Shown here piece by piece: positions 2,420 to 62,830 of a DNA stretch of 64,000 nucleotides. Where the stretch lies: positions 28,884 through 92,883 of the forward strand of contig CAVPXM010000006.1 in the NCBI GenBank assembly GCA_963709405.1. Reading direction: 5' to 3'. The DNA comes from an uncultured Nitrososphaerales archaeon (GTDB taxonomy: Archaea > Thermoproteota > Nitrososphaeria > Nitrososphaerales > Nitrososphaeraceae). Each line of letters starts with the position of its first letter. Position 1 is the stretch's first letter. The notes beneath the pieces are model-generated. The model searched no databases and was not told the DNA's origin. It worked only from the letters and a program-made list of their open reading frames with translations. The position numbers and the translations under genes are program-made.

Positions 2420-2775
2420 ATGAGTAAGTTTGGGGAATCTTAATAGCTCTGATTTATGTATCTCAGGATCTTTGTACTTGATGTGATGCTCTATTGATTG
2501 CAGATGGACATTCTTTATATCAGGATGTAATCTGCAGTAAAAGTATCCCTGCTTTTTAGCAATTATAGGATAACACTGGCTCTGGTCTAGAGTGTGTTCC
2601 GGAAGTTGCGCGTATGGTGTTGTTGGATCATCAAGAAAGAAATCAGTTATCGATCTGATTTTGGGCGTGTCTTCTATATCTATGGATGGTTTGGTTGGTA
2701 ACGGGGAACATGACCATGCGCGCCCCTCAATGTTCCCGTCCAGTTTCCCGTTATTATCGCTAGTGATTTACCTGT
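2420..2775 (-). repeat. Degenerate mobile-element segment 'Z' (copy 1), Cys/His-containing protein tail
   Basis: Minus strand reads YFYCRLHPDIKNVHLQSIEHHIKYKDPEIHKSELL; homologous to ~4330-4705, 33600-33925, 49760-49865, 52260-52410, 62180-62360. Confidence 0.8.
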
Positions 2776-2789
2776 GGATTTCCTTAGAG

Positions 2790-3009
2790 CATGATATTGC
2801 AGGAAGTTCAGGAAATGATATACTGCATGGTAACGTAGGAGATGATATAGTACAAGGAGGATCAGGAAATGACCAAATATTTGGAGATGATGGTAATGAC
2901 GTACTTACATGAAGCACAGGAGCTGATCACTTTGATTGTGGTTCTGTTACGGATAGAATCACAGTACTTTCAACGAGGTATTGGTACAAAGACAGTAGAT
3001 TGCGAGTAA
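2790..3009 (+). pseudogene. RTX/hemolysin-type Ca-binding repeat protein, C-terminal fragment
   Basis: GSSGND/GGSGND/GDDGND nonapeptides; in-frame TGA at 2910, then STGADHFDCG..DRIT, then a frameshift and ..TKTVDCE*. Confidence 0.8.
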
Positions 3010-3268
3010 TTAGATAGGTCTACTGACTAAAGAACTGTACTTATCTTCAAAGAAAAAACAGGAATGAAGGAAGGTACTAAGTTCTAATACATAGCCAAAC
3101 AGCATTAATGTCCCAGAGGTCTGGTTTACAGTATATAAACTAAATACGAACTAATTCTACAACAAATTCTGAGTTATTCATAGCTATAATACAATGATAA
3201 TAAATAGATGAATAATTTACAGTTTGCTTATCTACATATTTTGATATAATGAATTCAGGTTACCTAAT

Positions 3269-3329
3269 TGTTGTACTTGCACGGATAGGTTACATTTCTA
3301 ATTACCTACATGGGTTACACTTTTCTGTA
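3269..3329 (-). mobile_element. Internally deleted IS481-family remnant (one end only) between CCTAAT direct repeats
   Basis: 3269-3328 matches the IS end starting at 63806; CCTAAT at 3263-3268 and 3330-3335. Confidence 0.75.
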
Positions 3330-3403
3330 CCTAATAGCCTCAGACTTACACTAATTTAGCTGTTGGACAACATACAGCGCAATTTAGGGCGACCGATAGT
3401 TTA

Positions 3404-3793
3404 CAAAATACCGCGTCTGTCTCCTTTACATGGCAAGTAACAACACCATCTCCACCACCTGACAGTCAATGTACAGGTAGTGGTAACACCGTGATTACAG
3501 GTACAAATGGAGATGATACTCTGATAGGAACCGCTGGTTCTAACGTTATAAATGGTCTTGCTGGAAATGATGTTGTAAATGGTGGCGATGGAAATGATGG
3601 TATTGCAGGAAGCACAGGAAATGATATAATACGAGGAGATTCAGGAAATGACCAAATATCTGGAGGCAATGGCAATGATATCCTTACCTGAGGTCCAGGA
3701 AATGATCAGTTTACTTGCGGTGGTGGTACAGACAGAATTACTGACTTCCAGCCAGGCCTTGATACAAAGACAGCAGATTGTGAAATAAGTTGA
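3404..3793 (+). pseudogene. RTX/hemolysin-type Ca-binding repeat surface protein, 5'-truncated
   Basis: SFTWQVTTPSPPP linker, GxxGND repeats, in-frame TGA at 3689 followed by open GPGNDQFTCGGGTDRITDFQPGLDTKTADCEIS*. Confidence 0.8.
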
Positions 3794-4059
3794 TGTGATT
3801 TAGTAGTAGTAGCAATAACTATTACTGCTAATCTCATATTTTTAGCTAGCTAACAGAGTCTAATACAAACTAGTTAGAACATCGAAAATCTAGAATATTT
3901 CGTAATTTGCAAATACAATCTTTGACCTCGATTTACCACTGAATCAAAGATCATATTTCTTAGATATCGTGCTGTCAACTAATTCCTATTCGTACCGATG
4001 AGGCATCTGGCGCGCGCCCATGACTAACTAACATACAAAGTGTTATGTGATTATGTCCA

Positions 4060-4705
4060 TTTATCATAGTCTATACAGATAATGTCACCTTCCAGAAAAT
4101 ATTTATAATCTGGTGTGTCGCACATCTGTATTAGAAGACACTCTTTCCGATATAACTTAACTGGACTTTAAAAGAATCCGATATTATCTGATATATTAAA
4201 AACTAACTGGATATTAGCAAATTGAATCCGTGGGTTAACATCAACCAATGATTACTATCTATAGATATCAATTGTAGAGTCGGCAGTTCAGTTGCGTAAT
4301 TAATGTCGCTAAGTCCTGAAGTTTTACCTATTGATAGGATCAGCTGCTCATATGAGTTTGGGAATGTTCAGCTAATTTCAAGAACCTTGATTTATGTAAT
4401 AGAGGATCTTTGTATTTGATTCTCTCGATTCTGGTGTACATACTTTATCTCAGGATGTAATCCGCAGTGATAGTCTTCCTGCTTTATAGCAATTATTGGA
4501 TAACACGGGCTTTGGTCTAAATCTTGCTTTGGGAGCGGTGTGTATATGGCGTACTTGGATCATTATAAGAGAAGTCAGTTATTGACCTAATTTTGGCCGT
4601 GTCTTCTATATGTATAGCTGATTCGTTTGGTAACTGGGACATGAGCAGGCGCATCCTTCAACATCCCCGTCAGATTTCCAGTTAATATCACTAATGATCT
4701 TCTTA
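4060..4705 (-). repeat. Degenerate mobile-element segment Y+Z (copy 2)
   Basis: Near-colinear with 33340-33925 (aaatatttataatctgg...gattactatcta...gatctttgtatttgattctctcg). Confidence 0.85.
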
Positions 4706-4738
4706 TGGCTTCGGTTTATCTAAATGTGAGATGACGAG

Positions 4739-4858
4739 CCGTCATAGACGTCAGGGTATCCATAGTACTTTATTGAATCTCATATTATGAACATGTGACA
4801 CCTTACGTACTATTTTTTCTTGTACAGATTTGAATATGTACTACGGTTACTATGGATA
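4739..4858. repeat. Origin-like site: inverted 9-bp-period arrays around an AT-rich spacer
   Basis: ccgtcatag-acgtcaggg-tatccatag ... ctacggtta-ctatggata; homologous to 60848-60982. Confidence 0.55.
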
Positions 4859-7353: not shown

Positions 7354-7386
7354 TCAGGATTTATTATTAATACATAATTATATAAC

Positions 7387-11950: not shown

Positions 11951-12392
11951 TATCTTCACTTTTATAATGACATCTACTGTACAATTAGTCCAACTGCTAT
12001 AAAACTATGCTATTTTTAGGTTATAACTCCACCTCATGCTCTAGTACTATTACAATGCCGCTGCTTCTGTTCCTACCACTAAACATCTAATTTCCTGTTG
12101 AGTTATCACCGTTATCAACAGAGATTTTAAGAGGGAATAATGCAGTGCACCCCAAGGAAAGAGCTTCAAAATAGTAAAGGATATGCAATAATTGGTGGTC
12201 ATGGTAGTATTAATAAGACACCATCAACTCCTACAACACGGTCATCTATACCTACTCCTAACAGCTTACCACCACCACCAATAACAGCAGGCTAGCATTT
12301 CTACACAAATTCTACGTACGGAATATCATTACTTTATACACCTGCCTGGATTGAGTTCAAACGTTATATTTTAGGTTGAAGGTTGTTAACTA

Positions 12393-12945
12393 TTGAGTGC
12401 AGAAGGAAAGGGTAAGAAAAAGACGGTGCTAAGAACGATTCGTATAGATAAGGATTTAGATGAAGCTTTAGATAAAGATGCTGAGGAACATGGTGTTAGT
12501 GAAAATGCACTCATTTCTTCGATACTTGCAAAATATATTGAGTGGGATAGATATGCTGAAAAGTTTGGTCGTGTTTCATTGCCAGGTGAGGCTCTAAAAG
12601 CTATTATTGAAGCTACTGAACAGGATAAATTAGGAACGGCTCGCTGAAGAATTTGCGACATCAGTTCCCAAGGATTATGTCATGTTTCACTATAAGAAAT
12701 TAGATGTTGAGGCGTGTCTTTTGCACCTGTCATTTTTATCTAGATATGCTGGAATGTTTAAATATGAAGTTCAAATAGAACAGGAGAGAAACTATACAGT
12801 CACGATTCATCATAAATTTGGCGAGAAGTGGTCTTACTGGTTAAAAGAGTCTATTTCTATTGGCTTATTTAAGAATGTGTTGGGAATTCTCCCAAAGACT
12901 CATCTAAGTAAGAATTCAGTAATATTTACATTTCTTCTTCCTTAA
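12393..12945 (+). pseudogene. Ribbon-helix-helix regulator with C-terminal domain, single frameshift
   Basis: RTIRIDKDLDEAL..GVSENALI RHH pattern; frame change at ~12643 restores AEEFATSVPKDYVM into ORF 12682-12945. Confidence 0.7.
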
Positions 12946-13199
12946 CAATATCCATTTGAAATATTATTAAGTGTCATTGTACCAATGCATATTTCGAATC
13001 CGTTCCCATTAATATCTTATCGAATCAGTATATCACTGAATAATTATATCTTTGAATACCGCCATTGTTCATTTCCTAGGGCAGAAGAATCACTATTAAA
13101 TTCATGAGGTGGAGGGTAGTGACTATCGTCATAAATATAACGACTAGAATATCTCTTCTTTTCTATAGTCCTCTAGGCTCTTCATTTAACAATATTTTC

Positions 13200-13850
13200 C
13201 ATACCTTCTCTATCTTGCAGATCAACAAACAAACTAAACCAATTCATGACATGCTTTAGCTTACAATCATTATCTTTCCTACATGAAAAATAGTCATCAA
13301 AACATTATTCGGTTCTATCTTTTTTTATGTATTGGATTGTACTTTCGATAATAATGCTTGTGATAGGGAAAATGAAAATGATATTGTTCAACATTCAGGA
13401 ATCTAAATCCTTGTGGATGATACCATGTTACTCGATCAGTTGTTGAAATATTATGTTTTGCATATTTTTTAATCAGAGACTGTATAAACTGTTCAGCTAC
13501 AAGCATGTTTCTTTCTATGGATATATGAATACCAAGAATAGTTTTATCCGTTTGCTAGATGATAGCAACCCATAGTCATACATAATTATTTCCCAATTTA
13601 ATTAGTGCTTCATCCAGTTGTTAACTTCAGATAGCCTGAGACTCGTTTGGAATGATGATGTCTTCTTTGGCTTGTAGTGCTGGATCCAATTCCAAATGGA
13701 AACCTGGCTTTCTGTTGACAGTTTGAGATGACATTTGTGATATTTTTTGGAGTGACAAACATAAAAAGTACAACTGTGATGCCTAGTAGATATACTTTGA
13801 AGACGTTCTGCTCCTTCTATTTAACGTTATCAATTAAAGCTATACAATTA
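13200..13850 (-). mobile_element. IS6-family transposase pseudogene
   Basis: ERNMLVAEQFIQSLIKKY, STTDRVTWY and downstream CFDDYF..KLKHVMNWFSLFVD, typical of archaeal IS6-like DDE transposases; many frameshifts. Confidence 0.7.
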
Positions 13851-14109
13851 GTACTATCACTCAATTTTGTGTATTTCCATCACATCGCTCAGAAAAGACT
13901 TTTGCATTAGCGTCAAAAAGCGTAACATCATAGTTTCCTACTACCTCAAAAGTATAAGCTTCTTCTGTGAACTTTGCCGTCTTTTGTTCTTCTTTTGGCT
14001 CACATCGTGTAAGTCTCACATTGTGCAAATGCTTGTTTTTTTGTTTCTGAATGAGGCGCATCAATCTTCTTGTTAATTTCCAGAAAGATTAATGTGATAT
14101 TATTCTTTT

Positions 14110-14757
14110 TCATTCTTCGATACCGATTGCACGTATCGGTGAACCTGAGGCGCCTACAAGTTTTAGCGGAGTGATTATGAGAGTAAATTTTTCATTGTTG
14201 AGTCTGTATAAATTGCATAAATTTTCTATTACTAGAATTTGATTTGATAGGAGCATTTTATGAGCTATGAATACGCTATCAGTACCTATATCAATGCTCG
14301 GACAATCTATTGCTACGGCATTAACTTTTTTCTCGATCAAATATTCTGCAGCGTCCTTTGATAAGCCTGGATTATTTTTCATATAGTTATCCTTTTCCTT
14401 AATTTGCTTTTCCCATCCTGTTGAAAAGACAACAGTGTCTTTTTCTTTTATTTCAAATTTACTATTACGTATTATATCATCGCTAGTAATCATTTGATTG
14501 GAATTTTTCGGTAATTTTATGAGTATGGTATTATTACAAATGTATCTATTGACTTCAACTTGATCTATGGTTGGACCATTTGGATTGAAATGAAATGGAG
14601 CATCCATGTGTGTTCCTGTATGAGTACTCAAAAACATACATTCTGAAACATAGCCTTGAATGTCAAATTTCGACCATTTTATAAAAGTAGGCATTGGATA
14701 TCCAGGGAAGCTTATCATATCTGAAGTAATTTCAAGTGTAAGGTCAACTATTTTCAT
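14110..14757 (-). CDS. Cyclase-family metal-dependent hydrolase (kynurenine formamidase-like)
   Basis: HTGTHMDAPFHF signature, IDCPSID, IENL, GASGSPIRA. Confidence 0.92.
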   Translation of the reverse strand: MKIVDLTLEITSDMISFPGYPMPTFIKWSKFDIQGYVSECMFLSTHTGTHMDAPFHFNPNGPTIDQVEVNRYICNNTILIKLPKNSNQMITSDDIIRNSKFEIKEKDTVVFSTGWEKQIKEKDNYMKNNPGLSKDAAEYLIEKKVNAVAIDCPSIDIGTDSVFIAHKMLLSNQILVIENLCNLYRLNNEKFTLIITPLKLVGASGSPIRAIGIEE

Positions 14758-15744
14758 ATTTTATTACGACATTTCGCTACTATTATAATTTTCTTTCTTC
14801 ATCACCTATCTGCATCACAAGACATGATCTTAGTGGACCATAGGTTGAACAGTTAGATTTATTCTCGATCCAGTCACTTTTTTAGACATGGTTGAAATAC
14901 GTAGCATGAGGATCTGTTCCTTACAGGAATTCGCTTGTATGAAAGCACTTATCCTTTCTAATTTTCAAATATTCGACAAACGATCCATTTGTCTCTCCTG
15001 CATTTTTTCTTCATGACCAATTTGCCTTCTAAATAACTTTGGCAGGTTTAAATCACTCGCCTCGTCTGTATCAGGATCAACTCTATTAGCACCTGCTCCT
15101 TTTGCCGTTTTGAGATTAAAGTCAAAGTGAAGCATATTGTCTGAATAGCCCTCCCAAATACCTTTTGAATTATCTATAGCTGTTCTGGCCTTTGAATCGA
15201 TTTTAGTATTTCTTATACGGTCATAGAATTATAATACGTTGGAAACGCCCAGCCTTCTTCGACAAGCCACAGAACTCAGCTTAACCGCCTAAAAGTGGTT
15301 TTTGCTTTCCATTAATAAAGTCAGGGATTACTATTTCCTCGATTGTTTATGTAATCCGTTAATCTTTTATCATTACAGATTGAATGATCGGCTGATTTTT
15401 GTCACATTCTAATCGTATTGACGTCACTTTCTGATCACAATCTTGCAACTTGGTAATATCAGGTGAATGAGAATTTACTGCAACTGTGCACTCTTGCAGG
15501 ATGTTTTTGAATAATGGATTTATTTCTGTGTTAAAAGACGAAACCGGTTGTATTAATTCTTGGGCATGAGTCATCTTTAAATTCCACATCCCTGATAACG
15601 ATACATTAGTAATAATCACAACAGCGATAATGATAAATGATATCTTCTATGGTATAGACAAAATTGTAGTTGTCTTAGTTGTCATTGTCATCACATCTCT
15701 GTCTCAGTACTGCGCTCATGTACTGACCCGATTGAACCGCAGCT

Positions 15745-18770: not shown

Positions 18771-18810
18771 TCCACAAAATACTTTAGTATGTACGAAAAT
18801 GGTGATAATA

Positions 18811-19683: not shown

Positions 19684-19738
19684 AAAATGAAAATCTCTTA
19701 TATTCTATTGACAAGTATAGAAGTCCCGTATTATTAGT

Positions 19739-20777
19739 TGTTGTACTTGCACAGATAGGTTACATTATTAAGTACCTACATGAGTTACACTTTGCTGCTT
19801 AGTTCTTATACTTATGGTGGATGTAATTAATCTTTGTAGAAACATCTCTGATGGAGTAAGACCATTTATTCCTCCATGTTCTCTAGTTTCATTGTACGCT
19901 TTTACAAACATATCGTATCTTAGCTTACCATCATCTATGTTTGGTATATCTTCTATTGCTAGGAACTCATTTTTCACTATCTTGTTATATGCTTCTATTT
20001 TCCCTTGTAGCTGTGGGTAAGAATGAATTTGGTATTTGCTTATCCTTTATCTGATTGTGTACAAGGAAATGTCTGAACATTTTGGATGTAAACTGCTTTC
20101 CATTGTCATGCATTACTCTATCAGGTTTACCATTGATCACTATCCAATCCTCTAATACATTCAGAATATCCACTGACCTCTTTCTTTTAGACCATCTGCT
20201 TGCTACTTTTCTTGAACAATCATCCAGACAACTGATTATGTAATTCCTTTGACTAGAATTACTCAGATAGAAAGGGCCAAGGATATCCATCTGTACCATC
20301 TCATTTGGATGCTTCATGACAAACCGTTTGTAAGTTCTTGTTTTGGCCTTACACTTGAGGATATTAAGCCCATGTCTCTTTAGTATCTTGTATATAGTTC
20401 TGGTGCTTAACGAGATTCCAACAACCTTTCTTAATCTAAACTTGATCCTGCTACATCCAAACCTTTTGGTTAGTCGTAGATCAAGTATTGTCTCTTCTAT
20501 TTCTGATGTTACCTTTCTATATGGAGTATTATGAGGTCTTTTAGAGTTATCTAGAAGTCCTTCTATCCCTTTCTGTTTGTATCTGTTATTCCACTTGTAG
20601 TAAGTCTTTCTGGATGTACCGTATCTTTTACAAATATTAGATACTGTATCGCCAGTCCATTCTTTCTCATGTATTAGATTAAACCTTGTTCTGATTTCTA
20701 TATGGATTCACTTCCTGCCAGCAGAAGTGTAACCCATGTCTGTAACTAAATTGTCACCTATGTTAGGAAGTACAACA
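19739..20777 (-). mobile_element. IS481-family element with intact ends and frameshifted transposase
   Basis: TGTTGTAC...GTACAACA terminal IR, 6-bp TSD ATTAGT (19733-38, 20778-83); HTH + VQMDILGP/LDDCSR/HDNGKQF/GKIE DDE; 4-bp duplication frameshift ~20020. Confidence 0.92.
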
Positions 20778-20929
20778 ATTAGTTATATACAATTATGGTA
20801 ATCGAGGTATTATAGTGGAGACAGCTTCAATTACAATCAAGCAATTTGTTCCAGAAAGTAGCAAGTAGATGGTCTGAATGTGTTAGAGAATTGGATAATG
20901 ATGGCTAATGGTAAGCCTAAGGCGGTTAT

Positions 20930-21248
20930 ACATACTAAATGTTGAGATACTGATGGGTCATGATATCGGCCTTGTAGATTCTTACTATGGACCTTCAGAA
21001 CAAGAATTATTGAAAGACTACCTTACTTCAGTAGATTTACTGACGGTACTTAATGATAAGATCAAACTTCAAAAACAGATGATAGAACTAAAAAAAGAAA
21101 AGCATGGATAATGAATACATAATTAAAGGAAAAGTGCAAGTAAAAGACAAACAGATTCAGACATTGGTAAAGAAGCAAGACGAATTTGAACGACTAATTC
21201 AATCTTTAATGGATTCAGGACAGTTGAACCCAGGCTTCGAAAGATAGA
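20930..21248 (+). pseudogene. Tyrosine integrase C-terminal fragment
   Basis: VEILMGHDIGLVDSYY (box II His/Tyr) followed by coiled-coil tail. Confidence 0.75.
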
Positions 21249-29525: not shown

Positions 29526-29794
29526 TTTACTTGAGAATAACTAGTTATTTATATAACTAAACATTAGAGATTCGGACAGAAGGTGTTTTCAGTGATGCCA
29601 GGCTTGAGTATAGATGGTAAAATAGGGGAGCAATATTAAGGAATCTACTCTGATGATGGCCCAAGACCACTAATCCAACCAAACTGGTATACTAACAATA
29701 ATATGGATTTGACATTTGCGGTTTACCATGGCTATTGCAAGACCAAACTATCTTTAACTCTATAATGAATTGCTTAAATCTTTTCAAATGACAC

Positions 29795-30210
29795 CAGATC
29801 ATATCGGTAAGCGTACAAGAGAAGATGGTAACGAACGATGAAGACAGATAACTCTTCATTCGTTTAGAAGATTTGTAAAGACTACCATATCTGATCTTGG
29901 CTATGCCGATTACTCAGAGTATTTCATAGGACATTCTGGTTCAACATACTGGCGTAAAAAGGATTCAGAGAAAGCCGAAATATTCCGTAAGGTAGAGCCT
30001 TACTTGACATTTCTAAATATCCATCAGCTAGAAAGACAGGGCGCTGACATACAAACCAAGGTAGAGGAATTAGAAGAACTAAATCAGTCATTAAGACAGC
30101 GTGATAAAGTAAAGGATGACGCTATTGCACAATTATCAGATCAACTTGTTGCTCTGACAGCAAGGTTGCAAGAGCTTGAGAGAAGACAGAACGTAGGCAT
30201 CATAAGCTGA
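29795..30210 (+). pseudogene. Tyrosine integrase C-terminal fragment
   Basis: ITLHSFRRFVKT (HxxR), FIGHSGSTYW (His/Tyr), coiled-coil tail. Confidence 0.85.
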
Positions 30211-32733: not shown

Positions 32734-32836
32734 TTACTTTTCATCCACTTTTTTGGATTCTTTTGAAATAATCCGTCTAATAAAAAGTGTAACCATTATG
32801 TAATATGAAATTACTTAACTTGATAGACAAGCACAG

Positions 32837-33312
32837 TTGGAAAGCAATAGTGAATTAAAAATTCTTGGTTTCGCAGGAAGTCTAAGAGTTGGTTCTTATA
32901 ATAAGGCTCTTCTACGTGCTACTATAGACCTGTTACCGGAAGATGTTACTCTGGAAATATTTGAAATTGATGGCATTCCTCTATTCAATCAAGATATTGA
33001 GAAAGATATGCCAACGAAGGTAAGAGAGTTCAAATCGAAAATAAGAGAAGCAGATGCCATCCTGATTGCAACTCCAGAATACAATTATTCAGTACCTGGG
33101 GTATTAAAAAACGCAATTGATTGGGCCTCTAGACCTTACGGAGATAATGCATTTGAAGGGAAGCCGGCTCGCTATAATGAGTGCGTCAGTAGGCATGTTG
33201 GGTGGTGCTAGAGCACAGTATCATTTACGCCAGATATTCGTATTTTTAAATGTGTATCCGGTAAATGGACCAGAGGTTATACTTCCATTTGCACAGGATA
33301 AATTTGATGCAA
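32837..33312 (+). pseudogene. NADPH-dependent FMN reductase, frameshifted and 3'-truncated
   Basis: GSLRVGSYN, TPEYNYSVPGVLKNAIDW, GGARAQYHLRQ; frameshift ~33165; replaced by repeat Y after ~33312. Confidence 0.85.
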
Positions 33313-33339
33313 CTTCAGTACCTACGTATACTAAGGTGT

Positions 33340-33925
33340 CAGTCTATACATCCGGCATATCATTTTCGAAAATATTTATAATCTGGCATGCCGCATATCG
33401 TTATTAGAAGACGCCATTTCCGATATGATTTATACTGGACTTTACAAGAATCCGATGTTATCTGATATGTTAAAAACTAACTGCATATTAGCAAATTGAA
33501 TCCGTGAGTTAACATCAATCAATGATTACTATCTATTGATATCAATTGTAGAGTCGGTAGTTCAGTTAAGTAATTAATGTCACTAAGTCCTGAAGTTTTA
33601 CCTATTGATAGGATCAGTCTGCTCATATCAGTTTGGGAATGTTCGGCTAATTTCACGAACCTTGATTTATGTACCAGAGGATCTTTGTATTTGATTCTCT
33701 CGATTCTGGTGTACATACTTTATCTCAGGATGTAATCTGCAGTGAAAGTATTCTTGCTTTATAGCAATTATTGGATGTCACGGGCTTTGGTCTAAATCTT
33801 GCTTTGGGAGCGGTGTATATGGCGTACTTGGATCGTCATAAGAGAATCGAGTTATCGACCAGATTTTGGCCGTGTCTTCTATATGTATAGCGTAAGGGAC
33901 ATTTAACTGGAAACATGAGTAGCCG
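33340..33925 (-). repeat. Degenerate mobile-element segment Y+Z (copy 3)
   Basis: Homologous to 4060-4705; ends at GCGCGC 33925. Confidence 0.85.
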
Positions 33926-34117
33926 CGCGCCCCCACTAGATCGAACGGGGTTGGAACACCAATGGAGAGATGCGATAACATTCATTGCAAGAAACGAGAC
34001 GCGGTCATTAGTAGTAGTCGGAAGTAATCAAATACAAGAGCAGCATCAGATCCATAACGCGATAGAAGATAAATCTGTATCATCATCGGAAAAAAGGCTT
34101 TCCTTGTAGAGGAGCTG

Positions 34118-35387
34118 ATGAAAACATATACCTTCAAAACTTTAAAGGATGTAGAAATAATTCTATACTATAGAGAAGGCAAGTACTGCTCTGGCGGAGA
34201 ACAGCTCATTAAGGCTGAACTTGAGAGATTAGGTGGATTTTCGATAACCACACATTTGCGTACTGAGGTTATCAATCACATAAAGGCAAGAACGCTGGTC
34301 GATAGGGGCGAATTTGATACAAATCTGGATATTATGAATGTTAAGAATGGGTTGATAAACATTCGCACAGGTGAATTCAAAGAACACGATCCGAACTACT
34401 TGTCATTAATACAATTACCTGTACGATATAATCCTAGGGGCGCGCCCATCAAAAATAATTGCTTTTATGTACAATGTCTTGTATCCGTCCGACGTACCTT
34501 TACTGCTAGAGTACATAAGATATTGTCTCATCAGGCATAATAGATTACAAAAAGATCTGATGTGCGTTGGAGATGAAGATAACGGTAAGAGCGTTATGCT
34601 AAAAATTATTAGCAAATTCTTGGGTCGAGAGAATATTAGTAGCAAGACACTACATAGTTTGGCAGTGGTGAATGACAGATTCGCGACGGCCGACCTGTAC
34701 GGTAAATTGGCCAACATATTTGCTGACCTATCGGCAAAGAGACTTCCAGATATAGAAGCATTCAAAGTATTAGCCAGCGGAGATAGAATTAGCGCAGAAC
34801 GAAAATTTCAGAACAGCTTTGAATTTGAGCCAACTACTAAGCTGATTTTCAGTGCAAATACTCCTCCCAAACCAACTGACGATATGGAAAACGCGTACTA
34901 TAAGCGATGGATATTGATCTCATTTAATTTAAGGAAGAATTGCTTTTTCTGTAGGAAACCGATAGTTAAGGATCCAGATATTACAGAGAAGTTAACTACT
35001 GAGGAAGAATTGTCTGGCCTACTAAACTTAGCATTAATTTCTGCAAGGAGGCTCTTGACAAAACGTAAATTTGTAAAATCTTCTACTACAGAAGCGGTTA
35101 GAGAAATATATCAGAGATTGTCAGACCCAGTTAAGGCCTGGCTTGATGATAGGTGTGCACTTGGCCCACAATACGAGACAGATAAGCAGGAAGCACATAC
35201 AGATTTTATTAAATACTGTTGGGATAAGAGGCTGAATAGACTGGAAATAAATGCACTAGGTAGAGAGTTATCAAAACATAACATACACGACAAACGCAGT
35301 GGTTCAGGAGATGAAAGAGTACACATGTGGACAGGCTTAGCACTTAGGTCTAACCTGAGAGAAGATGGTCAGGAAGCCCTCCTATAG
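34118..35387 (+). pseudogene. D5/P4-family primase-associated SF3 helicase, one frameshift
   Basis: D5_N motifs (NVKNGLI..TGEFKEHDP..PVRYNP), Walker A GDEDNGKS, LYGKLAN, AERKF, KLIFSAN, C-terminal wHTH; frameshift at GGGCGCGCCC 34438-34447. Confidence 0.9.
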
Positions 35388-35532: not shown

Positions 35533-35804
35533 TCTGGTAAAACGAGCGCGGAGTGCAGATGCAAACTTTACTTATAACTCACCATTTAGTATTGGAGTAA
35601 ACGATGCAAAATGCAATGATACAGGTTGTCAGGTATACATACTACAGCCGGACCAAGGGTTTGCATTTCACTCTTCCGAATAAGGTCCTTTAACGACTCG
35701 TTATGTCATTATCTTTCATAATCAAGAAAAACGATTTGAATCTATCGGCTGCGGACCCGCACCTTTAATCATTTATGAGTTCGATAGGACAGTATTTGGC
35801 ACGC

Positions 35805-36309
35805 CTCGTGATATACAGCATACATAAATTTTATCATCATTTCGGGGCGTCAGTCTACACCTAGGACGCAGCATTTTTGATAATATTTATACCCTGGCAT
35901 GCCGCATATCTTATCATAACGCTATTTCCTAGATAATTATGCCGAATGTGTTAAAAAATCCGATATCATCCGATATGTGCATATTAGCGAAATTAAATAT
36001 GTTGATTCGCATCGACTAATTGCTACTATCTATAGATATCAATTTGCAAGGTCAACACTAAATTCCTAGCCTAGAATTTAACTCCATTAATCAAGTCCCT
36101 TGATGTTTCTTTCTTGTCAACCTACCGGTAAATGATAAAACTTTGCGCTCACTGTCAGGACAATTTTAATATTTCTATCTTGATATCTAACCAGAAATAA
36201 GAACTATCTGACCTATCTGACCTATCTGACACTTCCATACCAGCTACTCTCAAACCATACATAGATGTATTCTGTTCCAACTATCTGACCTATCTGACCT
36301 ATCTGACCC
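35805..36309 (-). repeat. Mobile-element segment Y plus (atctgacct)n arrays (copy 4)
   Basis: Colinear with 53405-53919; arrays at 36204-36230 and 36281-36309. Confidence 0.85.
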
Positions 36310-36774
36310 AAGTTTATAGTACACGTTGATATATCAAAATTACCAAATTGGTATATATTTCAATCCGTCTAGATGGAAATTCCTGCTGATTAATCCATAT
36401 TTTCAATATTGAACCACGTGAATCATCAAGCAAACATCATATATTATTATTTTATTTAAAGTCATCTTTGAATAGCCCTTCTTGCAATTCTAATGCTAAA
36501 GATTTAGGTTATATAGAACAATTTTATAATTGTAGCAATTGATATCATAAAGCAGCAGTGTAAAGCTTTCTGGAACGCATCATAATATTATCCAGAATAT
36601 ATAGTATGGGCTATAGTGAGAAGCGGTATCTGCAACTATCTGTGCATAGCGGCGAGACCTTTATAGGTGATATTGCTAGGATGAGGGGTTTGCTGTTCAC
36701 TCTAGCGATAATATTGAGTCATCGTTATTGGCCCACCTTCATCTGACTATACAAGGTGATGACAGGCTGACAGA

Positions 36775-37123
36775 ACTCCTTTCATTTATGAGGTTTGTAA
36801 AGACTACCATTTCTGATCTTGGTTATGCCGATTACTCAGAGTATTTTATAGGACATTCCGGCTCTACATACTGGCGCAAAAAGGAATCAGAGAAAGGCGA
36901 CATATTCCGTAAAATAGAACCTTACTTGACATTTCTAAATGTCCATCAATTAGAAAGACAGGGCGCTGACATACAAACCAAGGTAGAAGAATTGGAAGAT
37001 CTAAATCAATCTTTAAGACAGCGTGATAAAGTCAAAGACGATGCTATAGCTCAACTATCAGATCAACTTGTCTCACTATCGGCAAGATTGCAGGAAATCG
37101 AGAGAAGACATGATATCGGTTAG
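36775..37123 (+). pseudogene. Tyrosine integrase C-terminal fragment
   Basis: SFMRFVKTTISDLG..FIGHSGSTYW; close paralogue of 29795-30210. Confidence 0.85.
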
Positions 37124-39098: not shown

Positions 39099-39239
39099 CT
39101 TGCCATGAATAACCACTTATCAAATTAGGTGTTTTCAATTCAGATGCCGCTAAAATGAACTGTATTTCTTATTATATTATATTAGTTTAGGGTTTGCCTT
39201 GAAGTCCATATGTCATTTGTCTTGTTGTTACGGCGCCAA

Positions 39240-39300
39240 AATCTTTTTCAAAAGACATTAGATCGTATTGGTAAGGGTGCGAGAGAAGATGGTAACAAAC
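39240..39300 (+). pseudogene. Tiny tyrosine integrase fragment
   Basis: SFSKTLDRIGKGAREDGNK matches DHIGKRTREDGNE at the start of the 29795 fragment. Confidence 0.6.
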
Positions 39301-49428: not shown

Positions 49429-49752
49429 TCATGTAAGCATGGGCAGAATATCTCTTATTATCTTGTTATGATCTGCATCTACCTCGGTAGTAACCAAGAG
49501 CAAATGGTCTTCTCCTAACGGAAATGTTATCCTTTTGATTTTCTCATATTCTGACATCGCATATTTTCCCTTACCCACTTTAGATGCGAGGGAGTTTCTT
49601 AAAGCCCATCTGGCTAGGGCTTGCAAATTTGATCTTTTAGTTTCCTCTGGAGATAGGAGATTTGTTATTCCTTCACGCTGTCCACCATATTTTATCGCAC
49701 CGGAATCATCACATACACCAGCGAACCTTATCTTGGGTTCCAGACCAAGGAT
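49429..49752 (-). pseudogene. DUF6659/roadblock-like protein, 5' end replaced by repeat Z
   Basis: ILGLEPKIRFAGV..GGQREG..GKGKYAMSEYEKIKRITFPL..LLVTTE; no start codon before the Z fragment. Confidence 0.65.
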
Positions 49753-49818
49753 AGTCTAATGAATTTTAATAACTCTAATTTATGTATCTCAGGATCTTTA
49801 TACTTGATATGATGCTCT

Positions 49819-49949
49819 ATTAATCTTAGGTGTACGTACCTTATATCAGGATGCAAGCTGCATTGAGCAGAGCATAGAAGTCTCAATCAAGACCATACGA
49901 AAGTCGGAAACCACCTCGCAATAAGGAGTAGTTTCAGAATTAGGTATTA
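49819..49949. repeat. 131-bp direct repeat, left copy (flanks IS630)
   Basis: Identical to 51113-51243. Confidence 0.95.
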
Positions 49950-51114
49950 AGTCAAGTGTCACATTAAATGTCATTATTCCATCTTCCAAATCTATTATCT
50001 AGATATTCTGATACTGCGGTTTTCTGGTCTTCTATATTTTCATAAAACCTATTCGCACATACATGTGACTTTATCAGCTGGTTTACCTTTCTTTCATTTG
50101 GATTTAGGTATGGAGCCTTCTTTGGTAGGTGGATTATAGTTAGCCAGTCTTCTCCTTTCTGTGTATTGATATAATTCCGTACCATTAGGCTTACATGGTA
50201 TGAAGCGTTATCCCATATGAGTATGAGTCTTTTCCACCAATCACTTTTCATAATGTTTCTCTTAGATTCTCCAGATGGTCGATAGTACTCGTAGAATTCA
50301 TTCTATCATCATAGAAATCATACATCAACTTCTGATCTGGCCATAGCATGGATATGTATGCAGAGAACTTCTTTCTACTTCCATCATGTTCTATCCTTTG
50401 TTGCTGGCCTTCAAAACTCATAGATCTTCGTATGCAAGGTTTCTGTGTTATCGTAGTTTCATCTTCAAATACTAACATCACTCCTTTTTTTCAGAGCTGA
50501 TGCTACACGTTTATAATCTTCCACCCTCTCTTTTCCTTCTTCATAATCAGGTCCATGTAATAGTTCCAATTTTGGTCTTTTACATCTGATCCCCATATCC
50601 TTAGTTATTCTTTGCAGGTGTTTGAAGCTGATTGATATTCCAAGCTCATCTGTAAGACATCTTGCAAGTGACCTTAGACTCCATGTATTTCTAAGATAAC
50701 CAAAGATATGGGGATCATTAAATAATGCAGAAAGGATAATCTCTTTGTTTTCATCTGTTATACGTGAATTCAGTCCTCTGGGTCTCTTCTTTATCCTTAC
50801 CTCTCCTATCCCACCATGAGTAAACGCAACAACCCATCTTTGTACAGATCGAATATTGACTTCGTATTCATGTGCTATGTCTTCATAAGATCTACCTTCA
50901 ACTTTTTGAAGTATAGCCAGTACCCTACGATACTCCTTCTTGTTAGTTGTATTATTCATGAGTGATTCTAGACTTGTTTTCTGTCCCCGGCTTAGATTCA
51001 ACTTAGAAGCACGTCTCACATGATGGGAATATCCTACATCTGTTAAGCTTTATCTATCTAAAGATCTAGACTATGCAATAAAAATAATATGACATATAAC
51101 TAGACACTTCACAT
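49950..51114 (-). mobile_element. IS630-family element
   Basis: HTH ORF 50465-51019 ending in an A7 slippery run; DDE ORFs (FEDET, WDNASYH, PYLNPNE); imperfect ~28-bp IR next to TA at both ends; extra frameshift ~50250. Confidence 0.9.
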
Positions 51115-51243
51115 TAATCTTAGGTGTACGTACCTTATATCAGGATGCAAGCTGCATTGAGCAGAGCATAGAAGTCTCAATCAAGACCATACGAAAGTCG
51201 GAAACCACCTCGCAATAAGGAGTAGTTTCAGAATTAGGTATTA
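51113..51243. repeat. 131-bp direct repeat, right copy (flanks IS630)
   Basis: Identical to 49819-49949. Confidence 0.95.
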
Positions 51244-51407: not shown

Positions 51408-51944
51408 ACAATAGTAACGTCCGCAGATATTATAATGCTGAGATTCTATTTTCTCGCCAAATTAGTTAAATTGTGCTTTCCTTTTTTAGCTATGCTCTGC
51501 ATTATATGTGATTATCTTTTGTTATGGTTTATTTCTTGTGTTTATTTAGTGTAATATTCATTTAAGTGGATTGAGCTTTTATGCAGTTTGTATTATCGAC
51601 TAAAGAATAGTAAAATATTATCATTGACTATTCAGATTAAACGGATTATTTGCTTTATCCTTTGTAGTAGATTAATTCATCTACAATCACAAATAACAAT
51701 TTAATACTTGACTTAGATATTAGGTCCAGACTCCAAAACTTTCGTCAAATTAGAAATAAACATTAAGTAAAAAATGGAGACACCGTCATAGCAGTTGAAG
51801 CTAAAGGTAGTATATTATAGCACTATCGATCTTTCTATACACACGGACACCTGTTGACAACGATGACACAGAAGAGGCTACAATCGGGCGCGCCCGTCTC
51901 GGGAGGGACCAAGTATAGCTATCGAAAATGAAAAACCGTGCGCC

Positions 51945-52410
51945 TCTCGATAGACATGCGCATAAATTTTATCATCATTGTCTAAGAATACCGAGTCGTC
52001 ATCCTATACATCAGATGCCTCATTTTCGAAAATATTTATAATCTGGTATGCCGCATATCGTTATTAGAAGACACCATTTCCGAGATAACTAAACCGGACT
52101 TAAAAGAATCAGATACTGTCTGATATGTTAAATACTTGCTAGATGAACTAAATACTTTGGTTTACATCCACTAATATGCTACTATCTATAGATACCATCA
52201 GTTGGCGGAGTCGACAGATAAGTTCATCACGAGTCCTCCTAGTTTTACCTATCAATAGAATCAGCTAGTTATGAGATAGTCTAGTGAATTTTAATAACTC
52301 TGATTTATGTGCCTCAGGATCTTTGTACTTGATATGATGTTCTATGGATTCCAAATGTGCATTCTTTATTCCAGGACGTAATTTACAATAATATCCTCCT
52401 TACTTTAGAG
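51945..52410 (-). repeat. Degenerate mobile-element segment Y+Z (copy 6)
   Basis: cataaattttatcatcat...aaaatatttataatctgg...gatttatgtgcctcaggatctttgtacttga. Confidence 0.85.
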
Positions 52411-52540
52411 ATATTAGTAGTCTTTGGAGCAACTTTGGGAATTTGTCCTGCCGCAAACGGCCAGGCATCTTGTTTTGTTTTTTCTTCACCTATGCAATAT
52501 TTAATTAAAAGCTGCTGTATACTACGATGTTAATCTCTCA

Positions 52541-58971: not shown

Positions 58972-59122
58972 GCATGAATTCTTATCATCATATCAAGGAA
59001 TCAGCTATAAATCGGATGTCTCAATTTAGAAAATGTTTTTAATGTAATATGCCGCACATCGTATTAGAGAACACTCTTTCCCAGATAACTAAACCGGATA
59101 TTGGCAGAATCCGATACTATTC
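58972..59122 (-). repeat. Degenerate mobile-element segment Y (copy 8)
   Basis: ttatcatcat...atgccgcacatcgtattagagaacactctttcccagataactaaaccgga. Confidence 0.7.
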
Positions 59123-59550
59123 ACTAGTAATAATAAAAATAGTTATTACGACTGTTGCTCCATAGTTCATAGTGAGCTAAATTGTTGCGTTTTGACGGCG
59201 ATAAAATTCAACTGCATATATGTGCTTGCACTTGAGATCACGACTAATATGGTCTGGACATGAACAAACCCATACAGACTGGGTTTCAATGACGTTGTAG
59301 GTATGATAGCCAGATTTTGACCTGACACTATATTTTGATTCGTTTATCATCGTAATAGCGCCACATGTTCGAGCTATCAGTTTGCCTTGCTCTTCACGAT
59401 TAACGAGTCGTTTAGGTATATTTAGCTAGGCGCGCGCATCTTGATCGTAGTAGGTAGTTTTCATTTATCGCCTCACCGAATCTCTTATTAGGATATTCCT
59501 GAAGTTCCCTTCTGATTCTAGTCCCTTCATTCAGGTCTTTTGTATGCGCA

Positions 59551-60210
59551 TCAAGGCATTTTCTCCGTCTTCCCATGTGACTTCAAATCTCTCACCAGTA
59601 TATTCTTTGTAAGAGTCTTTTCCAAAATGCCACATGGTGACGGTCCAGGAATCATGATCTGGAATGGATGAATAAACCATTTGAGAACGAAGGGATCATC
59701 GTTATCAAAGAATTTGAAATCAAGCCGTTGCTCGTACGGAGCAATATATATATTTGGAACACCATTCGTAAAAAAGTACCTTGCAGAATCGTACCTCCTC
59801 GGCAGCGTCTTTCGAAGCAACGCCTGCAGCATTCTTATTTGACGCGTCCTGCCAATTAGTCCATCCTGGAACCTTCTCAATCTCTACTTGGGGTGGAGTA
59901 GAAGCTTGACCATTTTTCTTATCTATCCAAAAAGATTTGAGCGATTCTATTGCCTCTTCCCCAATTTCCAGATTGCAAAAATTGACTTACTAATATTGCA
60001 CCATTCATCGCTCCTATTGAAGTACCAGCTATGATATCAAACAGTAGTCCATTTTCTCCACTTTTCTTGCTAACTTCCGTAACTTCTTCTTCAAGCTTCT
60101 TACGTAATACCTGGAGCACACCAACCTCGTAAGCGCCGAGAGACACTCCTTCTCCGAGAACAAGAGCTCTTTTGCTTCTTAGGTGTAGTCATATTATTCG
60201 TTTTAGACAT
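59551..60210 (-). pseudogene. Patatin-like phospholipase, frameshifted and truncated
   Basis: RALVLGEGVSLGAYEVGV, DIIAGTSIGAMNG (GxSxG). Confidence 0.85.
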
Positions 60211-60847
60211 TGCAATATTCTCATTCATTGCTTATCTTTAATATTTAATAATAAGAGAACGGTATCAATAACAACAGACAGATATTTATTAGTAAAGAAA
60301 TATAGATCACCTCTATACTACACATCTGGGCACCATTGGCGTACCGACGTTAAAGTTACGATATTGCTCGACTATACTAGAAGCCGACATAGTCCAGAAA
60401 AACTACTTCTATAAGTATATTCATATGGGTATGGATAGAATATGGTTTATGACATTCTTGGTATCCATTGTGGTTTACAGAGCATAGCGAGCATACTGAA
60501 ATATTTTTATAAAACGCAATAATTACAATCAGACGTACGAAGTGACTGCTAAGTTAAGATTATTATTTTGTTTATTAACACAAAATAAACAGTAAATGTG
60601 TTTAGAACACATTATAACATTGTGTGTATTTACTACTCCTAGGAATCCCCAGTGATTCTTTATTGACATTGTAGGGCGATTCAGGTGGATAATTGGCCTG
60701 GTCGCTCTATCTTATTAGGTTATGATACTATTATACTGTATTAGAAATAGGATAAGTATCTTAACCGTACCGCTAATTGTCATTTTTTGCCCATTTATGC
60801 TTTGAAGGTTTGGAGACATCGTAGATAGTTCATACTTAGCAAACAAG

Positions 60848-60982
60848 CCGTCATAGACGTCAGAGTATCCATCGTCCTATATTGGATTCTACATCCATAT
60901 GAGTATGTGGTACGACATAGTAATACAATTTTCATTATACAGAATTGAATATGTACTATGGATACTATGGATACTATGACGG
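60848..60982. repeat. Origin-like site: inverted 9-bp-period arrays
   Basis: ccgtcatag-acgtcagag-tatccatcg ... ctatggata-ctatggata-ctatgacgg. Confidence 0.7.
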
Positions 60983-61718
60983 ATTGGATATCACTAGAGA
61001 TTCGAGCACGAAATTCTATGAATATTATATGTAAAATTAATCCGTCAGGGTTGGTTTTCTATACATCAACAACGGTATTCTATAATGAAAAGCAAAAATG
61101 AGTGTTGTCTACCTATAATAATAAGAGTAATGCTGAATAAGAAATTAGTCAAGTCTGAAACCATAAATAAATCGCATCATGTTATTATGTCTACATTATT
61201 AATCGTCTTGGACTATCATCCTGTAGGTGTGATGATACTATCGATAGTTACACCTTGCCATAGAAATCCTACAATAGGTATACCATCAATATTCTGTAGA
61301 GAATCTATTTTTCCCAGTTTATCAGAATAAATCCTTTCCTAGAGATGTTAGTAACAATCACCCAAGCAGTAATCTTCAGTTTAGCATTAGGTGAAAGGAG
61401 CTCTATCAACACGTCCATTGCTACCAGAACTGAGGTTCAAAGTTTTCCTGGTAAATTGGGAGTAAAAAGAGGTCTTTAGAATAGCAAAAGAGTTGTACCA
61501 TGGCATTATTAAGGCACAATCCACAATGTCTGGAATGAAACCGAATGCGTTGATCAGCAGCAACTCAGTCAGCACCACCTCTAGATGGCGATGTAGTTGA
61601 CGTCTAAATGCTCACTTCAATTCTTAATAGATAATAGAAATAATTGATTAAATATGTTTAATTCGCATAAATATAATACCACATAACACTTTTATAGTAT
61701 AATATCATAAAATTTGGT

Positions 61719-61946
61719 ATGCGTAAACGAAATTTTTTCATGGCTTGTTGTTTGGCTATATTATTTGGAATAGGTGTAGTTACTATACCTTCTATAGTCT
61801 TAGCCGACAATCCGCATGAACCTGGCGATCAAGGAAATCCACATTGTCCAAGCCATCCTACAGGAGATCCACACGAATGTTCTAATGTATGTCGACCTGG
61901 TGCTGCTATTCCAGTGTGCAAGGGAGGAGGCGGTAAGCCAGGATAG
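61719..61946 (+). CDS. Small secreted His/Cys/Pro-rich peptide
   Basis: Signal peptide ending VLA, then NPH/NPH/DPH repeats and four Cys; TATA-like tttata upstream. Confidence 0.65.
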   Translation: MRKRNFFMACCLAILFGIGVVTIPSIVLADNPHEPGDQGNPHCPSHPTGDPHECSNVCRPGAAIPVCKGGGGKPG

Positions 61947-62179
61947 TTCTTATCTTAGCTTTACACTTCATGATGTTTTTTACGTTGTAAACATTCATCT
62001 CTATTTTTTGGCGGCCTCTGATTATTATCACTCATTTTGAATCACTTCCTGAAATACTGGACAGAGATTCTGACTGTAACCGATCGGTTGTCTAGCCTCT
62101 TTTTCTGTACTATTAATCTCATCTAGAATTCGCCAATTACATAGTGTATTCATATTACAGACACTAATTCAACTGAATG

Positions 62180-62360
62180 CTTTACTATCTATAGAATCAG
62201 CTAGTCATGAGTAGGTTTGGGGAATCTTAATAGCTCTGATTTATGTATCTCGGGATCTTCGTACTTGATATGGTGCGCTATTGATTCCAAATGCACATTC
62301 TTTATTTCAGGATGTAATCTACAGTAAAAGTATCCTTGCTTCTTAGTTATTATTGGAGTC
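62180..62360 (-). repeat. Degenerate mobile-element segment Z (copy 9)
   Basis: GYFYCRLHPEIKNVHLESIAHHIKYEDPEIHKSELLRFPK. Confidence 0.8.
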
Positions 62361-62830
62361 CATTATCTACCGATGATTTAGTCAACACATTGTACAAGTA
62401 TGGGTTTTCTGTCTCTAACTTCTCTAGACTTATCGGTAAATGACCATTACGTTCTGCAGAATTGATGTTATATTTGATCGTGTAATTAGGACTAAACTGT
62501 AATCGCTTTAACTGGCTGCATTTGTGTAACCAATTTTTGATTGTGCCGTAAGCCTCGTAATCAGAACATTTTATGATATTAGTAAGGTAAGGGGCCAGTA
62601 TACGCCACACTGTAAATTTTCTATGATCCTCTACTTGTGTCTGTAATAGTTTCTCAGTCCATCGGAAAGTAGTTGTATTGATGGTCTGAGCGCGCGCCCT
62701 CCTACTATCCGTTAATCTCTGCTTCATCTATTCATTAATTAGCCATCTTCTAAAATCGCGTAACAGATAATTTATTGCAGGCCTTTGACCGTCCCACCTC
62801 TAAAAGATTTTGAAGCTTTTCGATCAGATG
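62350..62830 (-). pseudogene. PriX-like primase C-terminal domain of a mobile-element primase
   Basis: WTEKLLQTQVEDHRKFTVWRILAPYLTNI..IKNWLHKC..GHLPISLEKL; upstream LLRDFRRWLINE separated by a stop. Confidence 0.75.

Follow-up and report, generated by a model that had tools for sequence, protein, structure and literature searches.

Co-oriented 3' stumps of mobile elements in a probable accretion zone of a Nitrososphaeraceae genome

How does an archaeal contig come to carry nine degenerate copies of one segment, all facing the same way and separated by unrelated DNA? This question is raised by a 64,000-nucleotide stretch (hereafter the window; bases 28884-92883 of C6, a 92.9-kb contig) of a Nitrososphaeraceae genome (G000; 4.83 Mb in 100 contigs), a metagenome-assembled genome (MAG) with a completeness of 91% and a contamination of 3.7%. 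A sequence-only reading of the window had proposed that elements integrated repeatedly, in one orientation, into a single hotspot and then decayed, leaving an integron-like accretion array of stress, metal, and defense cargo. The copies belong to a family that we call Y/Z, after a protein domain (Y) and a non-coding region (Z). The window, together with the whole contig, appears to be one of several accretion zones in this genome. In the explanation that we favor, small integrase (int)/helicase/primase elements integrated serially and in the same orientation at many loci and later decayed, leaving 3' stumps; since no attachment (att) site was identified, we give it about an even chance of being right.

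Y is the final 143 codons or fewer, on the - strand, of a mobile-element superfamily 3 (SF3) helicase gene that is known intact from a metagenome as the 786-aa protein P0002, and Z is about 300 nt of non-coding DNA that follows the Y stop codon. In a self-BLASTN comparison of the window, Y/Z copies were found at 2418-2780, 4095-4711, 33298-33891, 35802-36306, 49750-49862, 51941-52416, 53412-53919, 59005-59120, and 62173-62357, and all pairwise matches among them are +/+, which confirms the places and the single orientation that had been read from the sequence. Matches of the -/+ type are limited to the ends of insertion sequences (ISs) and one unrelated inverted repeat. All 11 copies on contig C6 are likewise +, the extra two being a copy to the left of the window and a 131-nt duplicate at 51113-51243. 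The window copies are 68-91% identical to one another, and the material that separates them is unrelated. They belong to the following features:

2372..2845, - strand: Y stump from a mobile-element SF3 helicase gene, 3' end only (aa 644-786 of 786-aa P0002)
4030..4858, - strand: complete Z+Y unit, the reference copy
33298..33936, - strand: Z+Y unit, 91% identity to 4095-4618
35802..36340, no strand: Z', in which two clusters, each of three tandem 9-mers CTATCTGAC, come after a Z core (35879-36044)
49750..51243, - strand: Y fragment (49750-49862) broken by an IS630-like element
51941..52417, - strand: Z+Y unit, Y being aa 737-786 of P0002
53412..53919, no strand: second Z', 84% identity to 35809-36306
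59005..59120, no strand: solo Z core
62173..62823, - strand: primase remnant, in the order AEP piece, PriX, Y end

The Y frame, which is open or formerly open on the - strand and has conserved Cys and His residues, matches the C-termini of two intact proteins, P0002 and the 612-aa P0006, the latter a different ATPase. Open Y copies have ratios of nonsynonymous to synonymous change (pN/pS) of 0.27-0.61 and an excess of third-position differences, indicating that Y was once coding. In a congener, the Y domain terminates a 511-codon frame bearing Walker-type motifs; such motifs are also seen by eye in P0001 and P0002, with no Pfam, NCBIfam-type, or PDB match. No SF3 helicase core is present in the window copies of Y. 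Throughout the genome, all Y-bearing loci (22 rows) keep only aa 644 or later, with stump starts ranging over aa 644 to 765, and none is joined to a helicase core. Likewise, the Y loci of Nitrososphaeraceae among species-representative genomes are stumps in five of five cases. The stump at 2372..2845 has 132 open codons and no start codon; no Z was detectable beside it, and it matches no Pfam family at E<=0.01, the one weak match being to YibY (E 0.053). Pfam recognized nothing in the Y frames or P0001, a PDB sequence search with the 786-aa helicase gave no matches, and the AlphaFold2 model of the Y domain, built from a nine-sequence alignment, is unusable (mean pLDDT 41.6), leaving the domain with no Pfam or PDB assignment.

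The earlier reading had suggested reconstructing a full element from relatives and locating its att site. A 6.66-kb metagenome contig (L086) is an intact relative that encodes a 504-aa integrase, an opposite-strand winged helix-turn-helix/Zn-ribbon protein, small open reading frames (ORFs), and the 786-aa helicase; the att site was not found, and direct repeats at the ends of L086 are chance-sized only. The int, SF3 helicase, and AEP-PriX genes are co-directional in six of the seven relative loci that hold int, and in L086. The related loci that carry record titles come from soil Nitrososphaeraceae MAGs. In L086, the 3' end of a convergent hydrolase gene starts 184 nt past the helicase. The window also has an alpha/beta-hydrolase gene (507-1604, - strand), which belongs to a multi-copy family with at least six matches at 81-86% identity in the congener G004; the two hydrolases are not close relatives (E 0.004).

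Z contains a perfect 12-nt palindrome, repeated CCGATAT-like words, a conserved GTATTAGAAGACAC block, and a TATA-like TTTATAAT box. In the reference unit, the non-coding Z (~4030-4340) has a TATA-like box and palindrome at ~4095-4160 and a perfect palindrome TATCTATAGATA at ~4254; its Y (4340-4711) is decayed, with several stops, and an additional shared segment lies at 4734-4858. The Z palindrome covaries between copies (GATATG..CATATC versus GATGTG..CACATC). We dropped the idea that Z is a structured RNA because RNAalifold, applied to 17 Z copies, gave no consensus structure on either strand (and none in shuffles either). A scan of the window at the Rfam gathering thresholds gave no matches. 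A C/D-box-like UGAUGA...CUGA in some Z copies was also dropped, as it is not conserved in the window copies, and an in-register listing of 20 copies shows no terminal inverted repeats or target duplications of the kind that a miniature inverted-repeat transposable element would have.

Both Z' copies run into paired clusters of three or four tandem 9-mers CTATCTGAC, at 36204-36230 and 36281-36308 in one copy and at 53809-53842 and 53894-53919 in the other. These iterons bear out the origin-like arrays noted earlier (36204-36308 and 53809-53919). The only 12-mers with at least four copies in the window are the iterons, internal Y/Z words, and a tandem 7-mer array at 18733-18770, which repeats TGTCCAA at least four times at the start of ORF 18658-19680. 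Among the 69 Z cores of the genome, 20 have PriX (13) or Y (7) directly to one side, always on the opposite strand, and one has another marker there. The PriX/Y-Z order is repeated in four other species.

The replication genes of the window include the primase remnant listed above and the following gene, flanked by direct Z repeats (33335-33547 and 35846-36044, 71% identity):

34073..35384, + strand: P4/D5-type primase-helicase gene in two overlapping frames (PF08706, PF19263, TIGR01613)

The D5 gene has a frameshift near 34410-34537 and scores 119.8 bits against TIGR01613 (cut-off 108.7). In the primase remnant, an AEP piece (62719-62823, aa 112-146) precedes the PriX ORF (62353-62727, - strand; PF18689, 36.8 bits against a cut-off of 25), which is followed by the last ~50 Y codons (62204-62356). 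The D5 helicase and the PriX-like domain reported by the sequence-only reading are thus both real. The PriX-Y-Z order also occurs in another species (L028, 11704-12616), so that the last ~50-80 Y codons directly follow the PriX domain in both. A full-length paralog of the primase (354 aa) consists of an AEP-like N-terminal part and PriX (PF18689), matches the Sulfolobus PriX structures 4WYH, 5OF3, and 5OFN in the PDB (E 2.5e-8 to 1.1e-7), and adjoins an SF3 helicase in relatives. Pfam does not recognize its AEP part, and we take this part to be AEP from a GxGYHIY-type motif seen in the sequence. The PriX/AEP remnants usually lack the N-terminal part. Four such stumps on contig C79 (61-88% identity, three with Z next to them) are spaced 4.8-5.6 kb apart in one orientation throughout, with unrelated sequence between them.

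We infer from these arrangements that Z may be the origin or control region of the element and Y a domain that recognizes it, which would explain why a linked module stands behind either a helicase or a primase. The linkage of Y and Z behind two different replication proteins fits a module of origin plus recognition domain, and the available text of Kazlauskas et al. (2018, PMC5862659) proposes that C-terminal winged-helix and Zn domains of primases of mobile genetic elements recognize origins. The present paralog resembles the AEP primases described there in combining an AEP-like part with PriX and in sitting beside an SF3 helicase in relatives; the differences are that Pfam does not recognize the AEP part and that the Y domain has neither a database assignment nor a usable model.

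The third component is the integrase, of which the window holds four pieces:

20935..21099, + strand: C-terminal integrase stump from a second subfamily (aa 315-368 of a 428-aa C16-type paralog)
29758..30189, + strand: integrase C-terminal stump (aa 277-421 of the 424-aa C42-type, 80% identity)
36341..37110, + strand: "Type-A" flank and integrase C-terminal stump (int part 36764-37108, aa 306-420)
39239..39300, + strand: 62-nt integrase piece, codons ~285-305 (DNA match, self-BLASTN)

Three of these were found by tblastn with full-length paralogs from the same genome. Pfam matched none of the four pieces; of the paralogs, the C42-type and C49-type exceed the 27.1-bit cut-off of PF00589 (49.1 and 48.7 bits), and the C16-type scores 17.3. 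The C42-type, which passes, is matched by the three best pieces at 78-80% identity, and the C16-type is the sole match of 20935-21099. The four integrase fragments on the + strand stand as first read, although their identification is indirect, through clear homology to full-length paralogs; each is a C-terminal piece that starts no earlier than aa 277 of ~424. The stump at 29758..30189 has one in-frame stop, a C-terminal coiled coil, and intact HxxR...GH...Y motifs, which we take to be those of tyrosine recombinases; in the 36764 copy, other residues stand at the junction in place of the His and Arg of HxxR. Between the two best copies there are 57 nucleotide differences over 119 codons, 41 of them at third positions, and the differing codons comprise 32 synonymous and 17 nonsynonymous ones. 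The earlier view that they look like diverged, independent elements rather than recent local duplicates is upheld by these counts. The 770-nt unit at 36341..37110 recurs on contig C16 (84% identity), and its upstream flank is also found on C20.

The genome has 75 integrase loci, roughly half of them C-terminal only and about 12 N-terminal only. Where the stumps begin bears on a different explanation, namely split-gene (SSV-type, or "suicidal") integration, in which attP would lie inside the int gene at about codons 305-320, integration would cut the gene and leave C-terminal stumps at the borders, and repeated rounds, perhaps with a second recombination site in the 3' part of the replication gene, would build a co-oriented stump bed. 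Along the 1272-nt gene, the starting points of ~10 integrase DNA matches fall within nt 996-1043, and those of five more fall at nt 1162-1169. Unrelated upstream flanks, at least three in number, adjoin the gene at almost the same position, and another N-side fragment (on C45) ends at nt 1039. The 39239-39300 piece, which ends ~10 nt or less from the int position where the 36769 stump begins, lies on the same strand 2.5 kb downstream of that stump, the expected int(C)...int(N) layout. There is precedent in the portions of two articles that we drew on: an SSV-like split integrase in one Nitrososphaera element (PMC6563490) and stump beds with hybrid integrases in Thermococcales (PMC7253208). However, the breakpoints scatter over ~50 nt with no single shared nucleotide, the 29758 stump is continuous across the proposed site, and the first residue of the Y stumps varies between aa 644 and 765. 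If the gene were split by integration, the two halves should be equally frequent, but C-terminal-only loci far exceed N-terminal-only ones. No integrase N-terminal similarity was found upstream of 39239, the candidate int(N) is only 62 nt long, and no tRNA target or clear att repeat was found. We consider split-gene integration unlikely, and it is the clustered break region in the integrase gene that keeps it alive. One further junction involves int: at C90:14852-15427 (- strand), a single open frame fuses an integrase piece (aa ~315-353) to the primase at ~aa 54, showing a deletion between element genes.

The window is accessory, with no match longer than ~3 kb in any of six congeners. Its remnants, however, extend well beyond it. 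Whole-genome mapping places the Y/Z family in 92 clusters on 40 of the 100 contigs. Copy density averages 1.9 per 100 kb over the genome; on contig C6 it is 11.8, roughly sixfold that value, and on contig C26 it is 13.0, with 11 copies in a 64-kb span, equal to the window. The Y domain is present in all six congeners and in two of the 12 other genera of the family that were searched, and the congener stump families include an occurrence on a 575-kb contig. In G004, the one congener searched for integrase, there are 75 integrase and 37 primase matches, mostly fragments. Y/Z neighbors no more than 5 kb apart in the genome have the same orientation in 31 cases and opposite orientations in 3, or 24 and 3 without C6 (binomial p = 2.5e-5), with the caveat that some close neighbors may be halves of one copy; for all neighbors on a contig the numbers are 42 and 10. 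Local co-orientation characterizes the family as a whole rather than the window locus. Genome-wide copies, which the sequence-only reading had set against its own proposal if they were uniform, do exist, but they are clustered and locally co-oriented rather than uniform or random.

Co-orientation might instead reflect local history only, if segmental duplication, gene conversion, and rearrangement driven by ISs had multiplied and spread a few ancestral copies inside each zone. Three pairs of window copies are mutual best matches within the contig, in direct orientation: those near 4060 and 33300 (91% identity), those near 35800 and 53410 (84%), and the copy near 58972 with the one to the left of the window (81%). 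For this reason, the chance of 1/256 that had been attached to nine co-oriented copies is arithmetically right but overstates their independence. A 716-nt match at 86% identity also links 58403-59115 with the region left of the window, IS481-like and IS630-like elements occupy ~45 and 29 loci in the genome, and near-identical segments of 1.5-4.5 kb stand at the ends of three other contigs. On the other hand, five of the nine window copies are most similar to a copy on another contig, unrelated sequence separates the copies, and the 68-91% identity with synonymous-biased divergence implies that the copies diverged while still functional in separate elements. The window therefore holds both independent arrivals and local copies, and we think it unlikely that local history alone explains the pattern.

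The genes that lie between the remnants bear on the hotspot proposal. They include two universal stress protein (USP) genes, two cupredoxin-domain ORFs, one CDGSH gene, a P-II gene, and others. A PADLOC search of 32 ORFs gave no convincing match, the two weak ones being CARF-like (E 1.8e-4) and a patatin fragment (E 3.5e-4). Thus, of the stress, metal, and defense cargo described earlier, stress and metal genes are present, but defense genes were not recognized. Three further features of the window are as follows:

12328..14768, + strand: chromosomal two-gene block, a ribbon-helix-helix (RHH)/HicB-like ORF with a neighboring ORF and a PF04199 cyclase gene
19729..20789, - strand: IS481-like insertion sequence, rve transposase in two frames (19771-20707)
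32819..33404, + strand: NADPH-dependent FMN reductase pseudogene in two frames

The block consists of 12328-13198 and 14096-14768, which are adjacent in at least six relatives and are parted here by ~890 bp. Loci of 13.7-20 kb fetched from three relatives show the block in synteny with no integrase, helicase, or primase marker, and it is therefore not the case that elements brought in all of the cargo. In two congeners, the block sits between homologs of C26:35826-38517 and C26:38853-39906. Here, these two segments are only ~335 nt apart with the block missing between them, so it would appear either that the block moved into the island or that the ancestral copy was lost and the window copy is a paralog. 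A 594-nt (approximately) repeat at 13178-13771, with up to 29 matches in the genome, splits two genes that are ~10 nt apart in relatives; its small ORFs have no Pfam match, and it may be a non-autonomous transposon. We also considered the whole window as a circularly permuted captured segment, with the order of the parts labeled x and B swapped relative to G004, and set this aside because the evidence is too thin.

In its strict form, the hotspot proposal holds that one chromosomal site received orientation-specific integrations and grew by integron-like accretion of stress, metal, and defense cassettes. The co-orientation of nine of nine Y/Z copies (11 of 11 on the contig), their roughly sixfold density, and the USP, cupredoxin, CDGSH, and P-II genes between the remnants are what it would lead one to expect. 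A single hotspot is nevertheless at odds with a family that occupies 40 of 100 contigs and all six congeners, with C26 being as dense, with 75 integrase loci, and with co-orientation of 24 to 3 elsewhere. The comparison with integrons fares no better. The window resembles an integron in having co-oriented, palindrome-bearing, non-coding repeats amid diverse accessory genes, but it lacks an intact integrase beside an attI, its repeats consist of gene stumps and an origin-like region rather than attC-like elements, there is no folded-strand consensus or conserved Z fold, and genes lie on both strands. With no convincing defense gene among 32 ORFs, and with one "cassette" being a chromosomal block that was relocated and that is free of surrounding element markers in relatives, we regard the strict hotspot as very unlikely.

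Could the arrangement be a product of binning or assembly, with chimeric contigs built by joining repeats that came from mixed strains or from a population of plasmids or viruses? The MAG has 100 contigs, window segments recur at 98-99% identity at the ends of three others, and an exact 131-nt duplication surrounds one IS copy out of 11 full-length copies. Short contigs from four soil or sediment metagenome runs (three studies), however, match parts of 28000-46000 with 0-5 differences per 0.5-2 kb, which speaks against a gross artifact; the stump families occur in six congeners, including on the 575-kb contig; and the G+C content is uniform over the window (0.32-0.41 throughout). An artifact on this scale is highly improbable. 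The depth of the metagenome contigs is low across 33.4-35.8 kb, and several joints bypass this interval: 32264>35504 (X1, X3), 32654>35793 (X2, X4), and several of the form 333xx-338xx>360xx. We dropped these joints as a deletion variant or att site because their sides are just 21-48 nt and lie inside repeats. A population indel is seen at 38701-39071 (371 nt, within ORF 38604-39095), which is swapped for 18 other letters in two runs from different studies and is well supported (side 255 in X1, 111 in X3).

Several observations weigh against serial integration as the source of the pattern. The window has its int stumps and D5 gene on the + strand and all of its Y/PriX stumps on the - strand, an antiparallel arrangement unlike that of intact relatives, and it is therefore not one head-to-tail array of one element type. 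The zone is co-oriented and decayed, as first read, but the polarity is not that of one element type. The orientation of int relative to Z within 5 kb is mixed genome-wide as well (left-same 12, right-opposite 14, right-same 11, left-opposite 4). No intact integrase is present in the window, no att direct repeat was identified at unit boundaries, and a tRNA scan found none in the window and none on ten island contigs, giving no tRNA-type attB; att sites could have been erased by decay. L086 shares Y and ~130 nt past the stop codon but lacks the Z core, and so the Z core and Y are not always linked. In addition, 48 of the 69 Z cores in the genome have no recognizable gene remnant beside them. 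Old segmental duplication may also account for some of the polarity, given the three window pairs whose best matches are local. Finally, the ends of contigs C83, C86, and C87 duplicate portions of the window at 98-99% identity and represent either segmental duplicates of recent origin or strain variants of the locus that were co-assembled; in light of these repeats, strain mixing may affect the assembly of this 100-contig MAG. Specifically, C83:1-4496, C86:44463-48371, and C87:21813-25058 repeat window 25036-29531 and 3834-7385, and an extra IS481-like copy sits inside the C86 repeat.

If serial integration is nonetheless the correct explanation, small plasmid-like integrative elements would enter by tyrosine-recombinase integration, and newcomers would re-use att sites on resident copies, giving a head-to-tail line-up. 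Deletions, IS481 and IS630 insertions, and rearrangements would then strip the element interiors. Co-oriented 3' stumps (Y-Z, PriX-Z, and int C-termini) would survive together with accessory genes that became trapped and one or more relocated chromosomal blocks, the ends nearest the recombination/origin region being those left over.

Parts of this scheme have precedents. Tandem arrays of integrated elements and cargo of this kind are already known in Thaumarchaeota: as far as the consulted text of Krupovic et al. (2019, PMC6563490) shows, cryptic integrated elements (CIEs) carry tyrosine integrases with primpol/AEP and SF3 helicase, fused or separate, integrated mobile genetic elements (iMGEs) carry UspA, P-II, and copper-protein genes, and arrays arise through re-use of integration sites. 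Accretion by tandem arrays and UspA/P-II cargo, as invoked by the sequence-only reading, is therefore in print. The window shares with the CIE/iMGE arrays described in that text the set of tyrosine integrase and replication proteins and the type of cargo, but it has almost nothing intact, its remnants are 3' stumps that number dozens per genome, and no att or tRNA target is visible. With the SSV-type beds, as presented in the sections of Badel et al. (2020, PMC7253208) that we used, it shares many integrase fragments, clustered intra-ORF breaks, and hybrid junctions; it differs in having no demonstrated intragenic attP, an excess of C-termini, breakpoints that are not single-nucleotide, mesophilic soil Nitrososphaeraceae as hosts, and no tRNA genes involved. 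The Y domain, the Z region, a genus-wide bed of co-oriented 3' stumps, and the block relocation were not found in open-access literature text, as far as this was available.

The window has a low coding density, many of its genes are broken over several frames, and ORFs occupy both strands. Besides the complete IS481-like element, one of ~45 copies in the genome, solo end fragments of this IS lie at 3261-3328 and 63798-64000. The IS630-like element that breaks the Y fragment spans 49945-51112, has its transposase in three frames (49967-51049), and has 29 matching loci in the genome. It is bracketed by the exact 131-nt direct duplication (49819-49949 and 51113-51243), which is seen in only this one of 11 full-length copies, the other 10 sharing 6-9 nt by chance; possible origins of the bracketing repeat are a target duplication of unusual length, DNA repair, and an effect of assembly. 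The window also contains a patatin fragment and an IS110 fragment. Two high-copy families, one at 40883-41213 (up to 30 copies in the genome) and one at 59170-59671 (SWIM-zinc-finger-like ORFs, with dozens of congener matches at 73-78% identity), may be other transposon families. RTX-type calcium-binding repeat (PF00353) fragments at 2574-2909 and 3338-3688, which are 76% identical over ~195 nt and have the solo IS481-like end (3261-3328) between them, resemble the remains of a secreted-protein gene that has been broken. A 77-nt inverted repeat (43972-44048/46934-47010, 81% complementary) encloses 2.9 kb that hold a cyclase-homology ORF (44082-45356) and the IS110 fragment, and may be a composite or foldback element.

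Taken as a whole, the remnants represent an undescribed family of small int/helicase/primase elements that has been absorbed repeatedly and that is marked by Y, a new C-terminal domain, and by Z, a conserved, putative control region. They also represent a regular type of remnant, the co-oriented 3' stump, in a genome with 75 integrase loci, 92 Y/Z copies, and dozens of ISs. It is conceivable, though distinctly unlikely, that Y-Z stumps in one orientation, each of them an origin-like site that in some cases retains the domain by which the replication protein would recognize it, act as landing pads that capture elements or chromosomal blocks, as decoys that titrate the replication proteins of newly arriving relatives (an incompatibility-type immunity), or as both. 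The landing-pad role, if true, would make them an archaeal gene-capture system distinct from integrons, and either role, if true, could help to explain the large genomes of this genus (3.4-4.9 Mb among members at least 85% complete). If the polarity is not due to site-specific capture, the locus is an ordinary, though extreme, mobile-element junkyard. If it is due to site-specific capture, then zones such as this one gather and shuffle accessory genes in globally important nitrifiers.

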